The notes: generated by a model from the sequence alone, not told the origin. A DNA stretch of 64,000 nt from Thermoplasmata archaeon (GCA_030043855.1 JASHWW010000005.1:9088-73087), one strand, 5' to 3'; positions 4,847 through 15,831 are shown, counted from the first letter of the stretch. Numbers and translations: made by a program.

Positions 4847-5482
4847 GTGCGCACTGGCCTCGTTCTCGTCGGCATCGGAATGGCGGTCATCGGCGCGGGA
4901 GTGATCGCATCGCTCGCGCTGGCGCCCGACCCGGGCACCCTCCGGGAGTCGTGGCCGATCGACATCGAGAATCTGACCAGCAACGCCTCCCGGGGCGTGC
5001 CGGTCCCGGTCACCGATGGAGCCTCTTCGGTGTTCTCGTTCGATTGGGTCGCTTCGAGCGCGGCTGAGGCGAGCCTCTGGCCGGCCGTCTCGTGCGGCGC
5101 GGCCGTCGGCGCCTGCCCCACGACGGAGCTCCCGGTCGTCCACTGGAACGCTACGACGCACGGTGACTGGACGACGCACGGCGACCTCCCCTCGTACTAC
5201 CTTCTCACCATCTGGGCCGCCGCGAAGTCGTCGGTGAACTTCACCGGCCAGGTCGCGGAGACGTACTCGGCCCCGAGTCTGGCGATCCCGACCTGGGCCG
5301 AGATCTCGGTGATCGTCGGCGGAGTCGTCCTGCTCGGGATCGGAGCGATGGCCCTGTTCCTCGGGCTGTTCCTGCGGACCTCGATCTACCGGGGACCGCC
5401 TCCGCCGCCTCCGCCGGAGCTCGCGGTCGACGAGACCGACGAGTTTGACGACGAGCCGCCCGACCCGCCGAACCCGAGCTGA
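4847..5482 (+). CDS. Hypothetical membrane-anchored extracellular protein (N- and C-terminal TM segments, N-x-S/T sequons, poly-Pro linker)
   Basis: VRTGLVLVGIGMAVIGAGVIASLALAP opens the protein; LLGIGAMALFLGLFL is near the C-terminus. Sequons include NLTSNAS, NATTHG and NFTG. GTG start. Confidence 0.5.
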   Translation: MRTGLVLVGIGMAVIGAGVIASLALAPDPGTLRESWPIDIENLTSNASRGVPVPVTDGASSVFSFDWVASSAAEASLWPAVSCGAAVGACPTTELPVVHWNATTHGDWTTHGDLPSYYLLTIWAAAKSSVNFTGQVAETYSAPSLAIPTWAEISVIVGGVVLLGIGAMALFLGLFLRTSIYRGPPPPPPPELAVDETDEFDDEPPDPPNPS

Positions 5483-5498
5483 CCGAGCCGGGGGGCGA

Positions 5499-7262
5499 CT
5501 ACTGCCCCCAGAACGGCCTCTCGGCCCGGTGAATCCGTACGACCTCTTCGAGGATCTCGCCCTCGCGCGGCGTCAGGGCCTGCTGCCGCAACGCCCGGGC
5601 CGCCGATTCCGGGATCGATGTGAGCAGGGCATCGCCGGGTTTCAGATTCCGACCGATCACCGCCCCCTCGATCGAGGCCGCGAGCTCGGTCCCCTCCTCC
5701 GCTTCGGCGACGCTCTCGCCGTCCCGTTGCAGGCCGCGGAGCACCCCGACCTCGGATCCGTCGGTGTGCATCAGGCGGACGCCCGGGCGCAGCGTCCCGC
5801 CGACCACCTTCACGCCCACGATCGCCGGCTTGGAGACGCGGAACACGAATCCGGGCAGCACCTCGAGCTTCGCGGGGTGGACGAGTTCCAGCCGCCGCTG
5901 GGCCTGGAGCTCCCGGCTCCTCTGTTGGCGCCACGTCTCGTACTCCTCCATCGCCCGGTACATCACGTCGGCCCGGAAGATCTTGACCGGCCCGTCCTCC
6001 CCTTCGGGGAGGGCGTCGGGAAGCACGGGCACGTTGAACGCGATCACCGCCCGATGGGTCGGGTCCTTCACGTCGGCCATCCGGAGGATGGTCGACCGCC
6101 CGACCGGTCCGACCCCGGCCTCGTGGACCGGCAGGTTCCTCTGCCGGCACTCGAAGGCGAGCGCCTCGAGCCCCCCCAGCGTGTCGGCGTAGATGGCGAC
6201 GCCGCTCTCCGCGAGCTCGGCGACCGGGTGCGATTCGCGGGTCAGCGCGGCCCGGACCTCCTCGGTCTCGGCGGTCGTCCGGACGACCTTGAGGAGCCCG
6301 CCGGGCATCGCATCCTCGATCCCGGGCGCCGACAGATACACGCCCGCGGCCGCGCGCACTGCGGCGAGCGACTCGAGCCGGCGCTGCTTCGAGACCTTCC
6401 CCTCCTTGGGAGGGATCGGGCGGTAGATCCCGCGCACGCGGGTCTCGAACGGCTCGGTGCGGCCGGTCGCGACGACGGTGTCGCCGACCTTGAGGGTCCC
6501 CTTGTAGACGATGATGCTGCTGACCGGGCCGACCCCGCGCTGGTCGCTCCGCTCGACGATCGTCGCCTCCCCCTCGCCCGCCTGGAGTTCGAGCTCCTCG
6601 GTCAGGAACCGTTGCGCGAGGCCGACGAGGAGCGCGATGAGCTCGGGGACGCCGACGCCGGTCTTGGACGACACCGGGACGATCCCGAGGTTCCGGGTGA
6701 AGTCGGTGACCCGGTCGTACCGGTCCGCCGAGAATCCCATCTGGACGAGGTCCTCCGCGACGCGGTAGAGGTGCGCGTCCAGCGCCTTCTCGAACTCCGG
6801 GCCGGACCGCTGGATCTCCTCGCGGAGCGAGACCGTTCCCGTGGCCTTGCGCCAGCCGGGCAGGAGGTCGATCTTCGTGAGGGCCACCGCGAACGGCGTC
6901 TTCTCGCGCCGGAGAATCTCGACGGACTCGCGAGTTTGCGGCATGAACCCCTCGCGAGCGTCCACGACGAGGATCGCGAGGTCGGAGAGCGCCCCGCCCC
7001 GCCGGCGGAGGGTCTCGAAGGAGCGGTGTCCCGGCGTGTCGACGAAGAGCAGCCCCGGGATGCGCATCTGGTCGCCCCGGAGGATCCCCTCGCAGAGCTT
7101 CCGGACGACCGGGCCCGGTACCTCGACGGCCCCGATGTGCTGGGTGATCCCGCCGGCCTCCCGCGAGGCGCGCACGCTCCCGGCGATGCGGTCGAGGAGC
7201 GTCGTCTTGCCGTGGTCGACGTGCCCCAGGAGGGAGACGATCGGCTCGCGCAGGTCGGCCAC
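5499..7262 (-). CDS. infB: Translation initiation factor aIF5B (IF2 homologue)
   Basis: GTPase G1 [21 protein letters not shown], then beta-barrel domains. Length 587 aa. Confidence 0.9.
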
Positions 7263-7286
7263 GCGCGGTCGACGAGGGGCCGACCC

Positions 7287-8318
7287 TTAGCGTTTCTCGC
7301 CGACCGCCTCGGGAGCCGCGAGGGCGGCGCGCAGCCGCTCGGCCGCCGCTTCGGGCGGGATCGGATTGACGGCGACCCCGGTGCCGACCTCGAAGCCGTC
7401 GGGGCGGATCGTCCGCGGCAGCAACTCGAGGTACCAGTGCTCCGATTCGCTGCCGAGCCCGCCCGCCCCGCTCCGGGTCACGAGGTTGTAGGAGACGCCC
7501 GGAACGAGCGATCGGAGCGCGCGCAGGGTCCGGGGCACCCGCTCCGCCAGCTCGTCGAGCTCCGCGTCGGTCGAATCGCCGAACGTCCGCGCATGCCGAC
7601 GGGGAAGGAATCGCACCTCGTACGGAAGGGCGGAGGCGTACGGGGCGTACGTCACGAACGATGCGCCTCGGTCTAGCAGGCGAGCCCCGCCGGCCTCCTC
7701 GCGCGCCCCGATCTCTTCGTATGCGCACGGAACCCCCTCCGCGCGGGCCCACGCCCGGGCGCCCGCGGCCTCCTCGGCGAGCTCCAACGGCACGAACGGG
7801 AGCGCGATCGCTTGCGCGTGGGGGTGCGTCAGCGTGCCTCCGGACTCGGGCCCGGCGTTCTCGAACAGGATGGAGCTCTGGATCCCCGGTCGGCCCGCGA
7901 GGTCGCGGATCCGGTCCCGGCCCATCCGGAGCACCTCGGCGGCCGCCTCGGGAAGGAACTCCGCGAATCCGGGCGCGTGATCCGGGCTCATGACGATCAC
8001 CTCGTGGTAGCCGGTCGCCGCGCGCCGGACGCCGAGCGGCGTGCGTTCCCCGAGGAGATGCGGGTCGGGAGGTCCCTCGAGCGTCGGGAACCGGTTGGGG
8101 ATCGACCGTACCGTCCACCCGGGAGCGTTCGGCGGTCGGCCCGGTGGACCGAAGGCGGCCGTCTCCGCGGGCGTCCGCGCCTCGTGACCGCCGCAGAACG
8201 GACACTCTCCGTCCGGCGGGGCGGGGGCACGTCCCCGGTACTCGTCCGGCCTCGCGAGCCGTCCCTCGGCGATGACGACCCACCGACCGGAGAACGGGTC
8301 CTGCCGCAGCTCCGACAT
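7287..8318 (-). CDS. Galactose-1-phosphate uridylyltransferase-like (GalT/HIT superfamily)
   Basis: [18 protein letters not shown]...[12 protein letters not shown]...[14 protein letters not shown] carries the GalT zinc site and HPH active-site motif. Confidence 0.65.
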
Positions 8319-8364
8319 CGCGCGACCGACCAACCCCGGCGCCCACTTGAGCCGGCGGGGCGGC

Positions 8365-9708
8365 TCAGTCGAGTTCGCTCAGGGGCCCGGTGATCAGGGG
8401 TACGAGGAACTCGGCCGGGTCGAGACCGCCGTGGGCGCCCGGTCGGTGATGCGGTCGCGCCGCGGCCCCCGGGATCGAGTAGGTCACGCCCGCGCCCGCG
8501 GGCAGGAGAACGATACTCTCCCCGATGCGTTCGCGGAGCTCCGGATGGAACGGCGGGGGGCCGAACAGACCCCCGGCGATCGCTGCATCGACGTCGAGGT
8601 AGCCGGTTCCTGGGGGGAGGTGTCGGAGGAGAGCGTCCCGGAGGGCGTCCGCATGCCCGGGACGGGGGACGACGAATACGGCCCGCCGATCGCCGGCGGG
8701 AGGGCGAGCGAGGTGTTCGAGGATCGACGGTTCGGCATCGACCCGCAGGAGTCCCTGGGGCGGGATCGACACCTGTCCGTGGTCGGCGGTCAGGAGGAGG
8801 GTCGTGCGACGCGCGCGTTCCGGTGCGACGCGTCGCCGGACCGCATCGAGGATCCGGGCCACCTGCGCGACCTCGAACTCCGCCATCTCCCGGTCCGGGC
8901 CGTGCAGGTGCTCGACGGTGTCGAGCTCGTCCCAGTACAGGAACACCAGCGCGGGGGGCGTCGGGCGGTCGAGGAGTCTCCCGAGGACCCGGACGAGATC
9001 CCCCGCGGTCGCGTACGGCGCGAACTCCGCCCCGTCGTAGAGGGTGCGCGTGAACCCGGACCCCGCGTACGTTCCGCGGGTCACAGCGACGGCCGGAACC
9101 CCGCGGCGAAAGATCGTTGGCACGCCCGAGATGTCCGCGGGCGTCCAGCCCGGGCCGACCAGGCTCTCGGCGTGCGGGTTCCCGAGGGGCGTCATGTGGA
9201 GGATCTCGGTCACGGTCCCGAACCGAGGGAGGTACTCCCGGTGGCCGACGACCCCGGTGCGACCCGGGGGAGCGGCGGCCGAGAGGCTCGTGAGGGCGAC
9301 GGTGGTGGTCGTCGGGAACACGGAGGTGATGGGGCGGGCGTCCAGCCAGGCGGGAGGGATCCCGGCTGGCCGGCCCGCACCGTCCTCACCGAACGGTGCG
9401 CCCCATCCGAGCCCGTCCACGATCCCGACGATCACCGTTCCCTCGGCGCGCCGACCGTCGAACGGGTCGAGGTCGCGCGCGAGCGGGGCGACCAGCTCCG
9501 ACGCCTCGACGGAGGCTCCCGTCGCCCGCACCGCCGTGGCCGCCACGTTCGGGAGCGATCGGCCATCGAACGACGGAAGTGGAAGGCCGAGTGCGCCGAT
9601 CGGGCGCAACAGTTGCGCCACGTCCTTCGCGAACGATCCGGACGTGGCCCTGACCTCCCCGGTCCGATGCGACGTGCGCGGGCTCTTAACCCCCGCCGAC
9701 CGCGACAT
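8365..9708 (-). CDS. Alkaline-phosphatase-superfamily hydrolase (type I phosphodiesterase / nucleotide pyrophosphatase-like)
   Basis: IVGIVDGLGW...SVFPTTTTVALTSL...TADHGQ...HGGLDPAE are the metal-ligand motifs of the AlkP/NPP fold. Confidence 0.6.
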   Translation of the reverse strand: MSRSAGVKSPRTSHRTGEVRATSGSFAKDVAQLLRPIGALGLPLPSFDGRSLPNVAATAVRATGASVEASELVAPLARDLDPFDGRRAEGTVIVGIVDGLGWGAPFGEDGAGRPAGIPPAWLDARPITSVFPTTTTVALTSLSAAAPPGRTGVVGHREYLPRFGTVTEILHMTPLGNPHAESLVGPGWTPADISGVPTIFRRGVPAVAVTRGTYAGSGFTRTLYDGAEFAPYATAGDLVRVLGRLLDRPTPPALVFLYWDELDTVEHLHGPDREMAEFEVAQVARILDAVRRRVAPERARRTTLLLTADHGQVSIPPQGLLRVDAEPSILEHLARPPAGDRRAVFVVPRPGHADALRDALLRHLPPGTGYLDVDAAIAGGLFGPPPFHPELRERIGESIVLLPAGAGVTYSIPGAAARPHHRPGAHGGLDPAEFLVPLITGPLSELD

Positions 9709-10849
9709 CGCCCGGTTCGTCGAGCCGACGCTGTCGTTGGTGGCGCGGCGTCAGTCGCTCCGTCCGCACCGAAACCGTGCGGACCGGCCGCCGCCCGTGG
9801 GCGCCGTCGGTCTCCCAGAGCTCGCGCGCGAGCCGGGTCGCTCCGTGCCGGAGCGCGGAGGCTCCTTCCTGCGCGCCCCCGAGCGCGCGGACGCGCTGGG
9901 TCCGGGTGAAGTCGGCCCATCGGAACGCCACTCCGACCGACCCGTACCGGAGATTCTCTCGGTCCAGGGCCGCGGCCAGGTCGGTCGCGAGCGCCTCGAC
10001 GGCGTCGCGGATCGGCTCCCACGCCTCGAGGTCGGTCTCGAACGTCCGCTCCGACGAGCGGGAGTGCGGCTCCCACGCCTCCACCGGCGCTTCGGACGGG
10101 TGCCCGCGCGCGAGCAGGATCAGGTCGCGGCCGAATTGGCCGAGCGACCGGGCGAACTCCGACGGGGCGCGCCCCGCGAGCTCTCCCATCGTCGTGACGC
10201 CCCGCGCGCGAAACGCCTCATCGGTCTTCGGGCCGACGCCCGGAACGGCACGGACCGGGAGGGGGGCGAGGAAGCCCGCGACGTCCTCGGGGGGAACGAC
10301 CACGATCCCTCCGGGCTTGGCGCGATCGCTCGCGATCTTGGCGACGACCCGGGTCGTGGCGACGCCGATCGACGCCGGGAGTCGCAACTCCTGGCGGAGC
10401 TCGGCCTGGACGCGCAGGGCGGCCTCCCGCGCTGCCCCGGCGCCCGATGCGTCCACCGCGACGGCCGCCTCGTCGATCCCGTACGGCACCACCCGCACCG
10501 CGTGCCGGGCCAGGATCGTCCGCACGTCCCCCGCGATCCGCTCGTATTTGGAGAAATCCGGCGGAATCCACAGCGCGTCGGGGCAGAGGCGCGCGGCGAT
10601 CGCGACGGGCATCGCCGAGTGGACCCCCGTCGCCCGGGCGGCGTAGCTCGCCGAGAGGACGACGCCCCGGGCTCGTCCCGACCCCGGCGGGGGACCGACG
10701 ATCACGCGCGCCTCCGCCAGTTCCGGTCGGTCCCGGATCTCGCAGGAGACGTAGTAGGCGTCCAGGTCGACGTACAGGAACCAGGTCGGCGGCGGCGCGA
10801 CGGTCGGCTCGAGGGTCGGTCCGGTCACCGAGGGCGCGGGGTCGCGCAT
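9686..10849 (-). CDS. dinB: DNA polymerase IV (Y-family, DinB/Dbh)
   Basis: WFLYVDLDAYYVSCEIRDRPEL matches the DinB N-terminal consensus (hVDhDAFYASVE). Palm, finger and little-finger regions follow. Start placed at the ATG at 10847-10849; an alternative GTG lies 7 codons downstream. The ORF-track extension to 11473 is shadow overlapping the KaiC-like gene. Confidence 0.8.
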   Translation of the reverse strand: MRDPAPSVTGPTLEPTVAPPPTWFLYVDLDAYYVSCEIRDRPELAEARVIVGPPPGSGRARGVVLSASYAARATGVHSAMPVAIAARLCPDALWIPPDFSKYERIAGDVRTILARHAVRVVPYGIDEAAVAVDASGAGAAREAALRVQAELRQELRLPASIGVATTRVVAKIASDRAKPGGIVVVPPEDVAGFLAPLPVRAVPGVGPKTDEAFRARGVTTMGELAGRAPSEFARSLGQFGRDLILLARGHPSEAPVEAWEPHSRSSERTFETDLEAWEPIRDAVEALATDLAAALDRENLRYGSVGVAFRWADFTRTQRVRALGGAQEGASALRHGATRLARELWETDGAHGRRPVRTVSVRTERLTPRHQRQRRLDEPGDVAVGGG

Positions 10850-10875
10850 GGGAGACGCGGCGGGCGTGCGGCGGC

Positions 10876-11601
10876 TCAGCCGCTCCCGAAATCGACCGCC
10901 TTCGCGTCGACCGCGATCCCCTGGGGACCGATCGCGTACGGCTGGACCGTCCGGACGTGCGGGGTGCGGCGCATCTTGAGGACCCGGATCGAGAGTCCGA
11001 TGCGGTGGCCGTCCGGTCCGGTGTTGTAGCCGAGCACGAGCACGCCGTCGGCGATGTACTCGGAGAGGCCATCGCGGCTTACCTCCGGATGGAGCGGGTC
11101 GGCTTCGGCGGTGAGGACGGTCGTAGCCCCCGAGGAGCGGCACGCTGCCGCGAGCGCGAACAGCGTCGCACGGCGCCCCGGCTCGTCGTCGCTGAGCATG
11201 TTGAGCAGGCTGACCGAGTCGACGACGATCCGTTTCGCCCCGAGGGCGGAGAGCTCCTTCCCGAGCTCGCCCTGGATCCGGTGGAGGCTCTGGCGCGTCT
11301 CCTTGGGGTCGAGCCGCACCACCTGGAACGTTCCCTTCTCGACCGCCGCGTCGACCGGCCAGTGGAACTGGCGGGCGCTCTCGAGCAAGGGCGCCGTCTC
11401 CTCCTCGAGCGAGAGGAAGACCCCCTTCTCTCCGCGCTCCGCGCCCGAGAGCAGGAACTGGAGGCCGAAGCACGTCTTTCCGGTCCCGGGCAGTCCGGTC
11501 ACGAGCACGACATGCCCCGATGGGAATCCTCCGCCGAGCATCTCGTCCAGGCCCGCGACCCCGGTGGAGACCTTCGCGCGCGTCGGCTCAGATCCGCTCA
11601 T
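10876..11601 (-). CDS. KaiC-like / RecA-superfamily ATPase (intact Walker A and B)
   Basis: LDEMLGGGFPSGHVVLVTGLPGTGKTCFGLQFL (Walker A) and RIVVDSVS (Walker B). Single KaiC/RadA-like domain, 241 aa. Confidence 0.75.
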   Translation of the reverse strand: MSGSEPTRAKVSTGVAGLDEMLGGGFPSGHVVLVTGLPGTGKTCFGLQFLLSGAERGEKGVFLSLEEETAPLLESARQFHWPVDAAVEKGTFQVVRLDPKETRQSLHRIQGELGKELSALGAKRIVVDSVSLLNMLSDDEPGRRATLFALAAACRSSGATTVLTAEADPLHPEVSRDGLSEYIADGVLVLGYNTGPDGHRIGLSIRVLKMRRTPHVRTVQPYAIGPQGIAVDAKAVDFGSG

Positions 11602-12502
11602 ACTGTGTGGTCACCAACCCGTTCGCGGCGTTCACCCGGATCACGAATCGGCCGTTGTACTCGCTCGAACTGTGCGCGAGGACCGGCATGAACTTCTCGA
11701 TCATCATCGAGCGCTGACGATGGGAGCGGGACGGGCTCGCCGTCCACCGGAAGTGGAGCACCCCGTCCACGGAGTCGATGATCGCCTGCTCGACCGACGG
11801 CGGCGCGACGCCCTCGGAGAGCACCAGGTAGACGATCCCGCCCCACTCCTTGGCCCGACGCCGCAGCCCCTTCAGCAAGGTCAGCATGTCGGTCGCCTCC
11901 ACCCCGCGCCGGACGACCAGGTCGGTCAGCGAGTCGACGATGACGACGTTGGAGGCGCCGAGTTCGTCGACCGTCTGCGCGAGCGCGGCCACCGGCCCTC
12001 CGTCGGGCGGTCGACTTCCCTCCGACGGGCTTCCCAGCAACGGTCGAACCGAAGCCCATGCGGCTGGGACGACGGTGTCCTGGAAATAGGAGGCGGAGAG
12101 GTCGCGAAACGTCAGGTGTCGGAGGAGGACCTTCGCGTAGAGCGGCTCGAACGACCCCTCGACCTCCCCGATCACCTGGTCCTTCGACCGGCTCGTGCTG
12201 ACGTAGACGACCGACTCGGGGTAGACGAACGGACCCTTTGCGCTCCCCAGGAAGAACTGGTGCAGCCGCGGGTCGTCGTAGTGCAGCATCAGGTGCACGG
12301 CGGAGGTGAGCGAGAACTCCTGGTGACCGGCACCCGCCTCCCCGAACAGGAGGATCACCGAGCCGACCGGTACGCCGCCCGTCAAGAAGTCGAAGTCCGG
12401 CACACCCGTCGGGATCCGGGCCGGCAGGCCGGCCAGGTCCGGGGGACGAGGCGCGGCCGGGTGGGACGGCATCACGAACGGGCGGGGTGCGTCCAACGCC
12501 AT
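11588..12502 (-). CDS. KaiC-like ATPase paralogue with a degenerate Walker A (predicted pseudo-ATPase)
   Basis: FDFLTGGVPVGSVILLFGEAGAGHQEF has the KaiC fold but lacks the K-T/S of the P-loop. VVIVDSLTDL is Walker-B-like. Overlaps the next KaiC-like gene by 14 nt. The upstream part of the 765-aa ORF is Arg-rich shadow. Confidence 0.6.
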   Translation of the reverse strand: MALDAPRPFVMPSHPAAPRPPDLAGLPARIPTGVPDFDFLTGGVPVGSVILLFGEAGAGHQEFSLTSAVHLMLHYDDPRLHQFFLGSAKGPFVYPESVVYVSTSRSKDQVIGEVEGSFEPLYAKVLLRHLTFRDLSASYFQDTVVPAAWASVRPLLGSPSEGSRPPDGGPVAALAQTVDELGASNVVIVDSLTDLVVRRGVEATDMLTLLKGLRRRAKEWGGIVYLVLSEGVAPPSVEQAIIDSVDGVLHFRWTASPSRSHRQRSMMIEKFMPVLAHSSSEYNGRFVIRVNAANGLVTTQYERI

Positions 12503-12540
12503 CGGGGGAGGTACCGGGCGCGAGACGCGGACGCCCGGTA

Positions 12541-13875
12541 TTAGTAGGCTCGGCTCGACTCGTCCCCGCAGAGCGGCCCGCCGCCGCTCTTCAAGAATTC
12601 CCGCAGCAGGATCGTCGCGTACGCCCCCTTCGGGAGGGCGAACCGGAACCACACCCCGTCGCCGTCGGGCGCGAGACCGAGCGGTGGGCACGGGAGGAGG
12701 ATCGGTCGCCACGCCCCGGCGCTCGCGAGTTCGGGAGCGACGGGGATCCCAAATTGCGCCGGGGCGACGGAGTCCGCGTCGAGGAGCTGGCGCAGGTGGT
12801 CCCCGGGCCGTCCGGCGCCGGGGACGGTGCCCGTACCGACCAGGGGACCGGCCACCGCCGCCCGTCCCCGCGCGACGAGCTCCGTGCACTCGACGACGTT
12901 GTCGTCCGTCACCGGGACATCGTCGTGACTCCGATAGGTGCCGTCCCGTCCGAGCCGGAGGATCCGGTCGCCCGGCACGGGCCGGTCGAAGGGAAGTCCC
13001 TCGGCTCGCCGGAGGACCATCCATCGGTTGAACAGATGCGCCTGGTAGGCGTGGACGAACAGCAGGCGGAGGTCGCGCGGGAGCGCGTGAAAGGCCCGCG
13101 CGGGCGGGTCGCCTCGGGCGAGTCGTTCGAGGATCGCCCGTTCGAACCGGTACTCCGGCGGGAACTCGGCCAGCGCCCGTCGCGCATCGCGATGCTCCGC
13201 GAAGGCGGCCCGGGCCGCGTCTCCGGCGCCTGGGGAACCGAAGTCGGGGCGGCCGACCAGGTACGTCTCGACCGCACGGTCGAGATCCCCCTGGACGACC
13301 GCGCGCCCGACGACGTGCGTGATCGGTCGGACCTCCCCGAACCGCTGCGGACCGAAGAAGTTGGGAAATCCACCCTGGTCGCGGAGCGACGCCTCCGTGC
13401 GCCGATACGCCACGATCGCCCCGTCCGGCGGGAGGGCCGTCCGTCCGACCCGGATCTCGAACGAATTTCCGTAGTGGTGGCCGAGCACCAACCCTTCCCG
13501 GGTCCGGTACGCGTCCCGCACCTCGACCCGGGGAAGTCCGAGGTCTCCGCTCGGGAGCGGTCCCCGGTACGAGAGCAGTCGATCGGCGACCGCGCGCCGG
13601 TCCTTCGTCCCCGACCACTGGATCGACCGGGACGAGATCCCGACCCGCCGCGCGATCGCCGCCCCCAGCTCGTGCTGCTCCCAGCCGCGGCTCACGATTC
13701 GGAGGACGACCACCCCACCGGCCGGGTCCGGTCGGGGATAGGTCGAGATCTCCCGGACGAGGAACTCCTCCCACGTCGTCTTGACATCGCCGACGACGCC
13801 CGCGGTGGACGTGAAGTAAAACTCGAGGCCCAGCGCGCCCTCGCTCGCCGGGGGCACGAGCGGGCGCGCCTCCAC
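12541..13875 (-). CDS. truD: tRNA pseudouridine(13) synthase TruD
   Basis: N-terminal LEFYFTSTAGVVGDVKTTWEEFLVREI and catalytic GTKDRRAV (GxKD) motif. Archaeal TruD length (444 aa). Confidence 0.8.
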   Translation of the reverse strand: MEARPLVPPASEGALGLEFYFTSTAGVVGDVKTTWEEFLVREISTYPRPDPAGGVVVLRIVSRGWEQHELGAAIARRVGISSRSIQWSGTKDRRAVADRLLSYRGPLPSGDLGLPRVEVRDAYRTREGLVLGHHYGNSFEIRVGRTALPPDGAIVAYRRTEASLRDQGGFPNFFGPQRFGEVRPITHVVGRAVVQGDLDRAVETYLVGRPDFGSPGAGDAARAAFAEHRDARRALAEFPPEYRFERAILERLARGDPPARAFHALPRDLRLLFVHAYQAHLFNRWMVLRRAEGLPFDRPVPGDRILRLGRDGTYRSHDDVPVTDDNVVECTELVARGRAAVAGPLVGTGTVPGAGRPGDHLRQLLDADSVAPAQFGIPVAPELASAGAWRPILLPCPPLGLAPDGDGVWFRFALPKGAYATILLREFLKSGGGPLCGDESSRAY

Positions 13876-13932
13876 GCGCTGTCAAGTGGGGCGGTCATTA
13901 TTACATCGCTCCCGGATACCGCCGAGGGCCCG

Positions 13933-14409
13933 ATGATCCAGGCGACGGCCCGGGTTCTCAAGAACGAGATCGAGATCCACGTCGGGGGCGAGCTGTGGAC
14001 CGCCCGACCCGTGGAGGCGACGCAGGAGGGCCTCGGGCGTCGCATCGCGGCGCTGTTCTCCACCGATTACCACGTACTGCGGCCGGCGCCTCCGGACGAG
14101 GTGTACGCCACGGTTTCGTACCGTGCGAAAGCGGACGAGATCCGGATCCAGGCCGGCGAGGATCACTGGCGCACGCAGTCCTCGGCCTTCGGCCCGATGC
14201 TCGTGGAGTACGGGGGGATCCGGTACACCATCAACGAACGCTTGACCGGACGATTCGCGATCCTGAACGGGACCCAGCCGGTCGCGCTGGGGCAGCTCGG
14301 GTTCCGCTCGTGCGCGATCCGGGACTACCCGCCGGAGCTCGAGATCTTCTTGGGGCTCCTGTCGCTCGGGTACGTGATCCGGACGCTCACCTGGGAGATG
14401 TTCGGCTGA
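13933..14409 (+). CDS. Hypothetical protein (158 aa)
   Basis: MIQATARVLKNEIEIHVGGELWTARP...EIFLGLLSLGYVIRTLTWEMFG has non-shadow composition. A TATA-like cattattac motif sits about 30 nt upstream of the ATG. The remainder of ORF 12487..14409 is shadow. Confidence 0.45.
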   Translation: MIQATARVLKNEIEIHVGGELWTARPVEATQEGLGRRIAALFSTDYHVLRPAPPDEVYATVSYRAKADEIRIQAGEDHWRTQSSAFGPMLVEYGGIRYTINERLTGRFAILNGTQPVALGQLGFRSCAIRDYPPELEIFLGLLSLGYVIRTLTWEMFG

Positions 14410-14418
14410 GACCGACGC

Positions 14419-15831
14419 TCATCGGGCCGTGGGCGGCCCGCGAGGGGGGCGCGGCACCGTCGCGCGGGTGCCCCGATGCAGGAGGTGGCGGTGCGACGCC
14501 GTGTGCGGGAGCTGGAAGACGTGGTACGGGATCGGCAGGAGGAGCGCCCCGCCCGCCACCACGGTGAGCGCGGCGACGGAATACGCGAAGTGCACCCCGT
14601 AGGTCGCGTACATCCATCCCCCCAGGAGCGTGCCGAGCAGACCGCCGGCCCCGGCGACCGCGTTGTAGAGGCCGAGCGCCCGCCCCCGGGCCGAGCGGCC
14701 CACCAGGCGGACGAGGAAGAGGGTGCTCGCGGTGCTGATGAACGCCCAGGTGACGCCGAGGAGCGCGTTCAGGAGCGTGAGCCACAGGAGCAGCGCCGGA
14801 GAGCCGAGGCCGAGGAGCACGTAGACGGGCCCCCACAGGAACAGCACCATCAGGAGGACGCGGCCGGTGAGCGAACCGAGGAAGACGTTCTTGGGCGAGT
14901 GGTTGTCGACCGCCTTCCCTGAGTGGAAGAAGAGCGCGGTCGAGGCCGCCGCCGAGCCGAGGTAGACGACGAATACGCCCGCGTCCGTGAAGCGGGCGCT
15001 CTGCCAGAGGAAGACCGGGAACGGTCCGTAGAAGATGTCGAACCCGACGCTCATCACCCCGAGCGCAGCGAGGAAGAGGTACTCCTTGCCGGGCAGTTTG
15101 TCCTTCGACGGCCGGGTCAGGTCGAGGATCGACACCACGCGGAGGCGGAAGGTACGGATCCGCTCCACGACGCCGCGGTGCAGGTGGACCAGGTCGGAGA
15201 CCGACCGCCGCTCGACGCGCGTCGTCGGTTCCTCGATCCACGCCCAGGCGACGAGGGCCGAGACGAGAGCGAGCGCGCCCGAGACGAGCAGGAGCGCGGT
15301 CATCGCGCCGATCATCGGCTGGCTGCGGCCAATCACGAACAGCCAGACGAACCCGATCGCGAGACCGACCGTCGTCCCGAGGCCGGAGATTAGGCCGAAC
15401 AACCCGATGTCGGTCGGCCACCACCGCTTGTGCCGCGTCTCGAGCAGCAGCATCGTGCCGATCGGGGCGCTGGCGGCCGAGGCGAGTCCCTCGACCACGT
15501 TGAGCCAGAAGTAGGTGACCAGCGAGTGGGCGAGCGCGATCAGGATGATCGAGACGCCGGTGGCGAGGAACGAGCCGACGAGGAAGTACTTCCGGTGGGC
15601 GATCCGGTCCGAAAGGTTCCCCCAGAGGATCGTGAAGGGAACCTGGCTCATCGCGCTCGCCGCGATGATGATGGTGACCGCGAACGCGCTCGCGCCGAAG
15701 TGCTGCAGCGCGAGCAGGGGGATCAGCGGGGTCGCGATCCCGTCGGAGATCGCGAGCGGCAGATAGGCGAAGAACCAGAGGTCGCTGCTGGACGGCCGGA
15801 GCACCGTGGGGGTCTTGATGTCGATCGACAC
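14419..15831 (-). CDS. MFS transporter
   Basis: About 12 predicted TM helices (LWFFAYLPLAISDGIATPLIPLLAL...; GNLSDRIAHRKYFLVG is the MFS loop-2/3 motif). Confidence 0.75.
   Translation of the reverse strand: MSIDIKTPTVLRPSSSDLWFFAYLPLAISDGIATPLIPLLALQHFGASAFAVTIIIAASAMSQVPFTILWGNLSDRIAHRKYFLVGSFLATGVSIILIALAHSLVTYFWLNVVEGLASAASAPIGTMLLLETRHKRWWPTDIGLFGLISGLGTTVGLAIGFVWLFVIGRSQPMIGAMTALLLVSGALALVSALVAWAWIEEPTTRVERRSVSDLVHLHRGVVERIRTFRLRVVSILDLTRPSKDKLPGKEYLFLAALGVMSVGFDIFYGPFPVFLWQSARFTDAGVFVVYLGSAAASTALFFHSGKAVDNHSPKNVFLGSLTGRVLLMVLFLWGPVYVLLGLGSPALLLWLTLLNALLGVTWAFISTASTLFLVRLVGRSARGRALGLYNAVAGAGGLLGTLLGGWMYATYGVHFAYSVAALTVVAGGALLLPIPYHVFQLPHTASHRHLLHRGTRATVPRPPRGPPTAR

Follow-up and report, generated by a model that had tools for sequence, protein, structure and literature searches.

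We analysed a stretch of 64,000 nucleotides (nt) from Thermoplasmata archaeon (GCA_030043855.1 JASHWW010000005.1:9088-73087; 71% G+C), called the window in what follows, which carries on its minus strand two neighbouring genes for KaiC-like proteins, one with a degenerate P-loop (named Kdead) and one with an intact Walker A motif (named Kact), set between truD and dinB. The reading that we favour, with moderate confidence, is that the two genes form an autonomous regulatory ATPase module of the archaeal KaiC family, switch-like in its action, and that their adjacency to dinB is a matter of inherited gene order. Open reading frame (ORF) and start-codon mapping followed by Pfam and NCBIfam domain scans gave the order truD, Kdead, Kact and dinB, with a gap of 38 nt between truD and Kdead, an overlap of 14 nt between Kdead and Kact and a gap of 26 nt between Kact and dinB, and these coordinates and spacings agree exactly with an initial annotation of this DNA. 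That annotation had read the four genes as one operon in which a pair of KaiC-type proteins of the RecA superfamily, the first with a dead and the second with an intact Walker A, is coupled to a DNA polymerase IV in a manner reminiscent of the bacterial ImuA-ImuB-DnaE2 cassettes. A single copy of each KaiC-like gene was found within the window.

The P-loop of Kdead reads GEAGAGHQEF and lacks the Lys-Thr of its Kact counterpart, GLPGTGKT. Kdead scored 35.2 bits against PF06745 (cut-off 26.6), over residues 30-76 only, and profile-profile comparison (hhalign) aligned the Kdead and Kact families over 225 columns with a probability of 98% and an E value of 1.3e-13. This same alignment placed STSRS in Kdead at the position of the catalytic Glu pair of Kact (SLEEE), while a Walker-B-like hhhhDS was kept (VVIVDSLTDL). 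The AlphaFold model of Kdead, built from 45 sequences, had a predicted local distance difference test (pLDDT) score of 89.7 and a predicted template modelling (pTM) score of 0.88, and it matched SSO2452, KaiC-CI and PH0284 with E values of about 1e-13 and target-normalised TM scores of about 0.76, the match to SSO2452 being the best. Kdead is a member of the KaiC family by its PF06745 score above the gathering threshold and by its RecA/KaiC fold, but it is without both the Walker A Lys-Ser/Thr and the catalytic Glu of an active P-loop ATPase.

A search for homologues of Kdead gave 487 at an E value of 0.001 or less in 90% clusters, the best 120 of which were 64-92% identical and came from Thermoplasmata metagenome-assembled genomes; relatives of Kdead carry the NCBI annotation 'RAD55 family ATPase'. 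The key positions of the P-loop motif G-x-A-G-[AS]-G-H-[QE]-E-F were invariant in 30 orthologues. With a sensitive search, the wider family extended to 213 clusters at 50% identity (E value of 0.001 or less) in Thermoplasmatota and Halobacteriota, and G-x-G-x-x-E-F without Lys-Thr was readable in 42 of 60 distant representatives (those where the motif pattern matched) and was also general in the 45-sequence alignment of the Kdead family. Because the degenerate P-loop is invariant in orthologues and shared by distant members, and because the fold is kept, a sequencing error, which would have explained the dead Walker A away, is ruled out. The alignments and the fold model together indicate that the inactivation of Kdead is ancient and selected, with retention of the fold.

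Kact scored 184.7 bits against PF06745 (cut-off 26.6) over residues 11-233 of 241, which places it in the KaiC family along nearly its whole length. Its motifs are the Walker A GLPGTGKT, the catalytic SLEEE, the Walker B VVDS and an LKMRRTPH at the position of the KaiC Lys/Arg finger. Comparison of nine Kact orthologues from different lineages showed that the Walker A, E166, the Walker-B D128 and the K-M-R of the KMRR box were invariant and that SLEE was conserved in eight of the nine. Searches against the PDB gave E values of 8e-56, 3e-35 and 2e-19 for a KaiC chain, PH0186 and SSO2452, respectively, so that Kact is nearer to true KaiC than to SSO2452, RadA or RadB. The closest family model was KaiC_arch_3 (TIGR03880), against which Kact scored 208.5 bits, under the equivalog cut-off of 249.45. 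Judged by its motifs, Kact is a canonical, active-looking ATPase of the KaiC-CI type. The intact Walker A and B of the second protein, the degenerate P-loop and retained fold of the first and the RecA-superfamily, KaiC-type nature of both, as initially annotated, were all borne out by these results.

We then compared the locus across the order Lutacidiplasmatales (UBA184), a lineage of acidic soil with about 69% G+C (PMC9287336). The sample held one genome per GTDB species, 80 species-level genomes in all, under names such as Thermoplasmata archaeon UBA184 and Candidatus Lutacidiplasmatales; a narrow alignment was used for the scan and the loci were read by tblastn and phmmer. The block formed by a major facilitator superfamily (MFS) transporter, truD, Kdead, Kact, dinB, (phosphodiesterase), (GalT) and aIF5B, in that order, was syntenic in the 80 species genomes. 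Kdead directly followed truD in all 78 informative species loci, and the Kdead and Kact genes were adjacent or overlapping in 77 of 79. Mean identity to the proteins of the window within the order was about 80% for Kact, 74% for aIF5B, 67% for Kdead and 60% for dinB. Kdead-Kact is a robust conserved unit whose genes usually overlap, and this overlap suggests translational coupling.

Outside the order, metagenome contigs were scanned with a degenerate DNA pattern for G-S-x3-L-x-G-[ED]-x-G-[AS]-G-x2-E-[FY], which avoids a bias towards close relatives; the scan gave 120 loci, of which about 98 encode members of the family. A neighbour-joining tree divided 175 Kdead sequences into four clades, which sorted by genomic context. 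All the lineages sampled from clades A, C and D carried the pair, with a Kdead identity of 35-47%. In clade A, the PilC-PilB3 genes stand beside Kdead-Kact in 21 loci (19 divergent upstream and 2 on the same strand), belonging to 9 of 37 clusters at 70% identity. The divergent arrangement is seen, for example, in L102, L111, L126, L137, L141, L144, L145, L165, L175, L179, L188, L207 and L214, and genes for V-type ATPase subunit I, PmbA/TldD and BofA-like proteins were often near clade A pairs. In clade C, the pair lies among genes for Hel308, LonB, nicotinamide mononucleotide (NMN) adenylyltransferase, CinA, an aminotransferase and SAICAR synthase. The window falls in clade D, that of the Thermoplasmata, which the tree sets apart from the pilus-linked clade A. 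Clade B consists of acidic, haloarchaeon-like proteins in which a Kdead-like gene is followed by a gene for a coiled-coil protein and Kact is missing. This coiled-coil protein has about 285 amino acids (aa) and no Pfam domain, and the Kdead-like gene is often preceded by a gene of the GHMP-kinase family (examples are L100, L105, L115, L116, L135, L172, L178, L182, L187 and L205).

Single loci added further contexts. The pair was accompanied by a zinc-ribbon protein and flotillin in L009, and in L010 by PilB3/PilC upstream and by a third KaiC and a CYTH protein downstream. In Candidatus Methanoperedens (L095, positions 7001-14879, and L096), the pair is followed by genes for a DUF7504-like protein, a MASE3-PAS histidine kinase and three single-domain response regulators, after which comes a second kinase; this locus looks like a signalling cluster made of a KaiC pair and a two-component system. 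A convergent Lhr helicase gene lies by the pair in L007, and a polysaccharide-synthesis gene and an opposite-strand PDDEXK nuclease gene lie by it in L092. An Lhr association obtained with phmmer was dropped as a specific link, because it mixes two helicase families of superfamily 2, Lhr (L007) and Hel308 (clade C), the latter amid LonB, NMN adenylyltransferase, CinA, aminotransferase and SAICAR synthase; no Lhr homologue was found within the 64-kb window.

The features of the locus are listed in Table 1. The tight packing extends past dinB, and seven co-directional genes from truD to aIF5B (5499-13875) follow one another with gaps of 38, -14, 26, -23, 31 and 24 nt. The truD protein scored 357 bits against PF01142 and 187.7 bits against TIGR00094 (cut-off 172.2), in both cases above cut-off. 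Long spurious ORFs are abundant in the window because of its 71% G+C, and Arg/Gly/Pro-rich ORFs of up to 986 aa (for example at 5386-8346 on the minus strand) overlap the true genes in other frames or on the opposite strand; these very long ORFs are G+C artefacts and not genes. A PADLOC defence scan gave a single weak P-loop hit, on Kact, and nothing else, and membership of a defence system was dropped on this result.

Table 1. Genes and promoter-like elements around the Kdead-Kact pair (positions counted from the first letter of the window).
Feature	Position	Strand	Remarks
truD, tRNA pseudouridine(13) synthase	12541-13875	-	444 aa, GTG start; PF01142, TIGR00094
Kdead, KaiC-like pseudo-ATPase	11588-12502	-	304 aa, ATG start; PF06745 partial match, P-loop, fold model
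Kact, single-domain KaiC-CI-type ATPase	10876-11601	-	241 aa; PF06745 full-length
dinB, Y-family DNA polymerase IV	9686-10849	-	387 aa; IMS, IMS_HHH, IMS_C
Type I phosphodiesterase-family gene (PF01663)	8365-9708	-	23-nt overlap with dinB
GalT gene	7287-8333	-	31-nt gap after phosphodiesterase-family gene
aIF5B gene	5499-7262	-	24-nt gap after GalT
AT-rich TATA-like element CGATGTAATAATGACC	13893-13908	-	about 25 nt upstream of the truD GTG; direct reading and 10-mer scan
Promoter-like box GAGCCTACTAATA	12539-12551	-	37-49 nt upstream of the Kdead ATG, overlapping the truD stop codon

Transcription signals were sought by a scan for AT-rich 10-mers against the 71% G+C background, from which AT-rich boxes stand out. 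The TATA-like element upstream of truD probably serves as promoter for a leaderless truD transcript. The box between truD and Kdead has a core, CTWCTAATA; at least 64 of the 80 species loci contain it exactly once, at the corresponding place upstream of Kdead. Its consensus in relatives is GAG[CGT]CT[AT]CTAATA, located 36-47 nt upstream of the Kdead start, and it persists as an intergenic element in loci where truD ends earlier. Within the 64-kb window the box is unique, CTACTAATA with at most one mismatch giving one match when 0.19 were expected by chance. The GAGCCTACTAATA box is probably the BRE/TATA (transcription factor B recognition element and TATA box) promoter of Kdead-Kact, and it may also be the binding site of a regulator; if it is read as the Kdead-Kact promoter, truD becomes a separate unit. 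A perfect 9-bp inverted repeat, TACCGGGCG-N9-CGCCCGGTA, lies between this box and the Kdead ATG (12505-12531, minus strand), and relatives often have some G+C-rich palindrome in the truD-Kdead gap. The repeat was dropped as a regulatory hairpin, since it is not conserved and since RNAalifold on 45 relatives gave no conserved or covarying structure in this gap (consensus energy -0.53 kcal/mol). In many relatives, AT-rich boxes were also found upstream of dinB, subclade-specific and at a similar distance from the start (for example CTTAGTACG and GATTATCG). No run of four or more T was found on the coding strand in any gap from truD to aIF5B of the window, and the packing of the seven genes points to long transcripts that read through genes of unrelated function.

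The protein encoded by dinB scored 125 bits for IMS, 57 bits for IMS_C and 29.5 bits for IMS_HHH, all above their cut-offs, and 245 bits against NF002677, just below the cut-off of 256; direct reading showed intact catalytic motifs (VDLDAYY and YGIDEA). The gene downstream of the pair is therefore a DNA polymerase IV, as had been annotated. A PIP (PCNA-interacting protein) box is the usual route by which archaeal Y-family polymerases are recruited by the proliferating cell nuclear antigen (PCNA), and the dinB relatives in L001-L091 end in a PIP-like box, QRQvsLDdF. At the C-terminus of the window's own dinB (9686-9760) the box reads QRQRRLDEP, the aromatic residue being lost where the next gene overlaps by 23 nt.

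The junction between Kact and dinB could be read in 72 informative species loci: the two genes were adjacent in 60, dinB lay behind an insertion of 0.46-4.8 kb in 10, and it was absent in 2, so that dinB was found within 5 kb of the pair in 70 of the 72. The insertions had a lower G+C (0.63-0.69) and carried varied, unrelated cargo, partly on the opposite strand. The gap appears as a recurrent insertion site in L015, L018, L020, L023, L024, L026, L066, L070, L084 and L087, with cargo such as an isocitrate-lyase-like ORF in L026 and an ORF of 760-870 aa in L018 and L020. Because of these insertions of variable and partly opposite-strand cargo, the Kact-dinB junction is the weakest of the three. 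The link to dinB was limited to the Lutacidiplasmatales and one sister lineage, that is, to 1 of the 37 metagenome clusters at 70% identity. This sister lineage, P0122 (L005 and L006), keeps the order truD, Kdead, Kact, small membrane protein and dinB, with identities to the proteins of the window of 45-47% for Kdead, 59% for Kact and 38% for dinB, and in lineages more distant than this one neither truD nor dinB was found near the pair. In L124, of clade B, a dinB gene lies 4.3 kb downstream of the Kdead-like gene; we took it as a probable coincidence, because it is one case in roughly 80 loci outside the order. By the same synteny, dinB would be coupled in the order just as well to the phosphodiesterase, GalT and aIF5B genes. 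For the position of the pair between truD and dinB, the best explanation is a gene order that the Lutacidiplasmatales and one sister lineage inherited. The polymerase IV encoded by dinB is an ordinary one with intact catalytic motifs, and it would not depend mechanistically on the pair. As for the initial annotation, the adjacency of dinB turned out not to be unique to this genome, although it is confined to one order and its sister lineage, and the conserved dead/active pair stood, whereas its coupling to the polymerase was reduced to local synteny. The proposal of a single four-gene operon is not supported, in view of the promoter-like box between truD and Kdead and, in relatives, the insertions between Kact and dinB and the AT-rich boxes before dinB.

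If the pair is an autonomous module, Kdead and Kact would assemble into a mixed oligomer of RecA folds, arranged as a hetero-ring or, like CI and CII of KaiC, as stacked rings. In this oligomer ATP would be hydrolysed by Kact alone, and Kdead would provide regulation or the binding of a partner. We would expect such an assembly to be a nucleotide-dependent switch, a role comparable to that of other archaeal KaiC-family ATPases, for which functions as regulators or signalling hubs have been predicted. In this genome, read-through from the Kdead promoter would transcribe dinB, the phosphodiesterase-family gene, GalT and aIF5B. The archaeal KaiC-family ATPases (PF06745; TIGR03880; arCOG01171-01175) are predicted regulators or hubs of signal transduction, and Kact resembles them as a full-length, single-domain protein with all catalytic motifs. 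Unlike them, it has as its obligate neighbour a paralogue whose P-loop is dead and whose catalytic Glu pair is lost. Comparative genomics has linked KaiC-family arCOGs to type IV pilus loci as predicted regulators; in Methanomicrobia, two of them, arCOG01172 and arCOG01173, are described there as co-transcribed with VirB11/TadC (PMC4858521). These two arCOGs may be the Kdead/Kact pair. Relatives of the pair are likewise found near PilB/PilC (VirB11/TadC) loci and two-component genes, whereas its neighbours here are truD and dinB. A switch agrees with the PilB/PilC contexts, with the contexts of histidine kinases and response regulators and with the predictions of PMC4858521. Kact is most like the CI domain of cyanobacterial KaiC, and the tandem genes recall a two-domain KaiC (CI + CII) that has been split; here, however, the domains are in separate genes, the first is inactive and neither KaiA nor KaiB is encoded nearby. 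No conserved Ser/Thr phosphorylation-site motif was found in the alignment of the Kact family, the one place where it was looked for.

Several results weigh against an autonomous module of this kind. The core order truD-Kdead-Kact-dinB survives in L005 and L006 although both outer flanks have changed, a persistence that is beyond what random drift of gene order predicts. The 26-nt gap between Kact and dinB in the window holds neither a promoter-like nor a terminator-like signal, and for this reason Kact and dinB are probably co-expressed in this genome; with no box of its own and no T run, dinB is plausibly read through from the Kdead promoter. Several neighbours in sister clades, namely Lhr, Hel308 and the PDDEXK nuclease, are enzymes of DNA transactions, and no homologue of PilB/PilC, of a histidine kinase or of a response regulator was found within the 64-kb window. 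The hetero-oligomer is something that we infer, and any signalling partner in this lineage would be hypothetical.

The co-expression and the persistent core order are what keep alive an alternative that we regard as unlikely, in which the pair was recruited in the Lutacidiplasmatales and the sister lineage as an accessory or regulator of translesion synthesis by polymerase IV, with dinB co-transcribed, and acts as RecA does with UmuD'2C or as ImuA does in the ImuA-ImuB-DnaE2 cassette. It draws on the closeness of dinB in 70 of 72 species loci, on the order kept in the L005 lineage, on the 26-nt gap without signals of its own and on the established regulation of bacterial Y-family or mutasome polymerases by RecA-fold proteins. 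In a form of it that we hold to be quite unlikely, polymerase IV is regulated or loaded, in a nucleotide-dependent way, by an ancient dead/active hetero-oligomer that was co-opted for the purpose and is expressed from a conserved dedicated promoter reading into dinB; archaea would then have an equivalent of the control of mutagenic polymerases by RecA or ImuA. The restriction of the dinB link to one cluster and one sister lineage argues against recruitment, as do the insertions in about 14% of species, some with opposite-strand genes, the absence of dinB in two species, the separate AT-rich boxes upstream of dinB in many relatives, the standard PIP-like box of its relatives and the fact that the same synteny would tie dinB to the phosphodiesterase, GalT and aIF5B genes. 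The likeness to ImuA-ImuB-DnaE2 was limited to a degenerate RecA-like protein encoded beside a protein of the Y-family fold. The Y-family protein of that cassette, ImuB, is catalytically dead, in contrast to the dinB of the window with its intact catalytic motifs, and the cassette is bacterial and LexA-regulated. Against the ImuA model NF033429, Kact scored 16.7 bits, with a cut-off of 150, and Kdead gave no hit, and no C-family polymerase (DnaE2) was found among the eight genes scanned around the pair, so that the resemblance that had been proposed is not upheld. Our literature search found no report on KaiC-like proteins with DinB in archaea or on KaiC pseudo-ATPases.

Two other functions can be weighed by the same comparisons. 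A recombination mediator or anti-recombinase of the RadA-paralogue type, acting on single-stranded DNA (ssDNA) or RadA filaments with no specific tie to dinB, either aRadC/SSO2452-like or as a heterodimer of the Rad55-Rad57 kind, is in our judgement very unlikely. SSO2452 (aRadC, RadC1) of the Sulfolobales, a single-domain KaiC-like fold tied to DNA repair, is the best structural match of Kdead and was also recovered with Kact; the Sulfolobus Dpo4 gene (SSO2448) presumably lies a few genes from it. Heterodimers of active and degenerate Rad51 paralogues are established in eukaryotes, and DNA enzymes neighbour the pair in several sister lineages. PMC8708640 and PMC10003305 cite SSO2452 as binding ssDNA and inhibiting D-loop formation, and RadC1 knock-outs as sensitive to damage. 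However, SSO2452 has an intact P-loop and is not known as half of a dead/active pair, and Kact is far closer to cyanobacterial KaiC (E = 8e-56) than to SSO2452, RadA or RadB. What the Rad55-Rad57 and other Rad51-paralogue heteromers share with the pair is the concept of a RecA-fold hetero-oligomer with one catalytically compromised subunit, the relationship being at superfamily level only, and the contexts of the pair's family are mostly not DNA-linked: clade A is tied to PilB/PilC and two-component genes, and the DNA-related neighbours elsewhere belong to different families, take different positions and are mixed with housekeeping genes. ArlH (FlaH) is the KaiC-like ATP-binding component of the archaellum motor, and a role of the pair as an ArlH-like accessory or regulator of a PilB/PilC-type secretion ATPase encoded elsewhere in the genome, as suggested for the clade A relatives, is not likely either. 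ArlH has a single-domain RecA/KaiC fold and works with the PilB-type ArlI and the PilC-type ArlJ, and genes of this type adjoin the clade A pairs in 9 independent clusters; there is a weak match of Kdead to ArlH (E = 7e-5), and arCOG01172 and arCOG01173 are among the KaiC-family arCOGs linked to VirB11/TadC operons (PMC4858521). Against this, ArlH keeps its Walker A, binds ATP and is encoded by a single gene, whereas Kdead is without Lys-Thr and is part of a pair, and the ArlH model NF052589 gave 22.6 bits for Kdead and 45.6 bits for Kact, with a cut-off of 215. No archaellum or pilus genes (PilB3, PilC) were found in the 64-kb window as ArlI/ArlJ-type neighbours, no PilB3 or PilC homologue was found in any of the order's 80 species loci, and clade D is apart from clade A in the tree.

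For genomes of this kind the locus carries a caution, that tight gene packing in a high-G+C archaeal genome does not equal function, since on that logic dinB would be linked to a translation factor as well. If the pair were after all a regulator of translesion synthesis, it would be the first dedicated regulator of a translesion polymerase in archaea. Under the reading that we favour, an autonomous regulatory module, the pseudo-ATPase partner, Kdead, is to our knowledge uncharacterised, and we know of no member of the pair family that has been studied experimentally. The analysis defines a widespread and strongly conserved pseudo-ATPase/ATPase pair in the archaeal KaiC family, one that is easy to find and to test because of its clean G-x-G-x-x-E-F motif and, in one order, its conserved upstream box.

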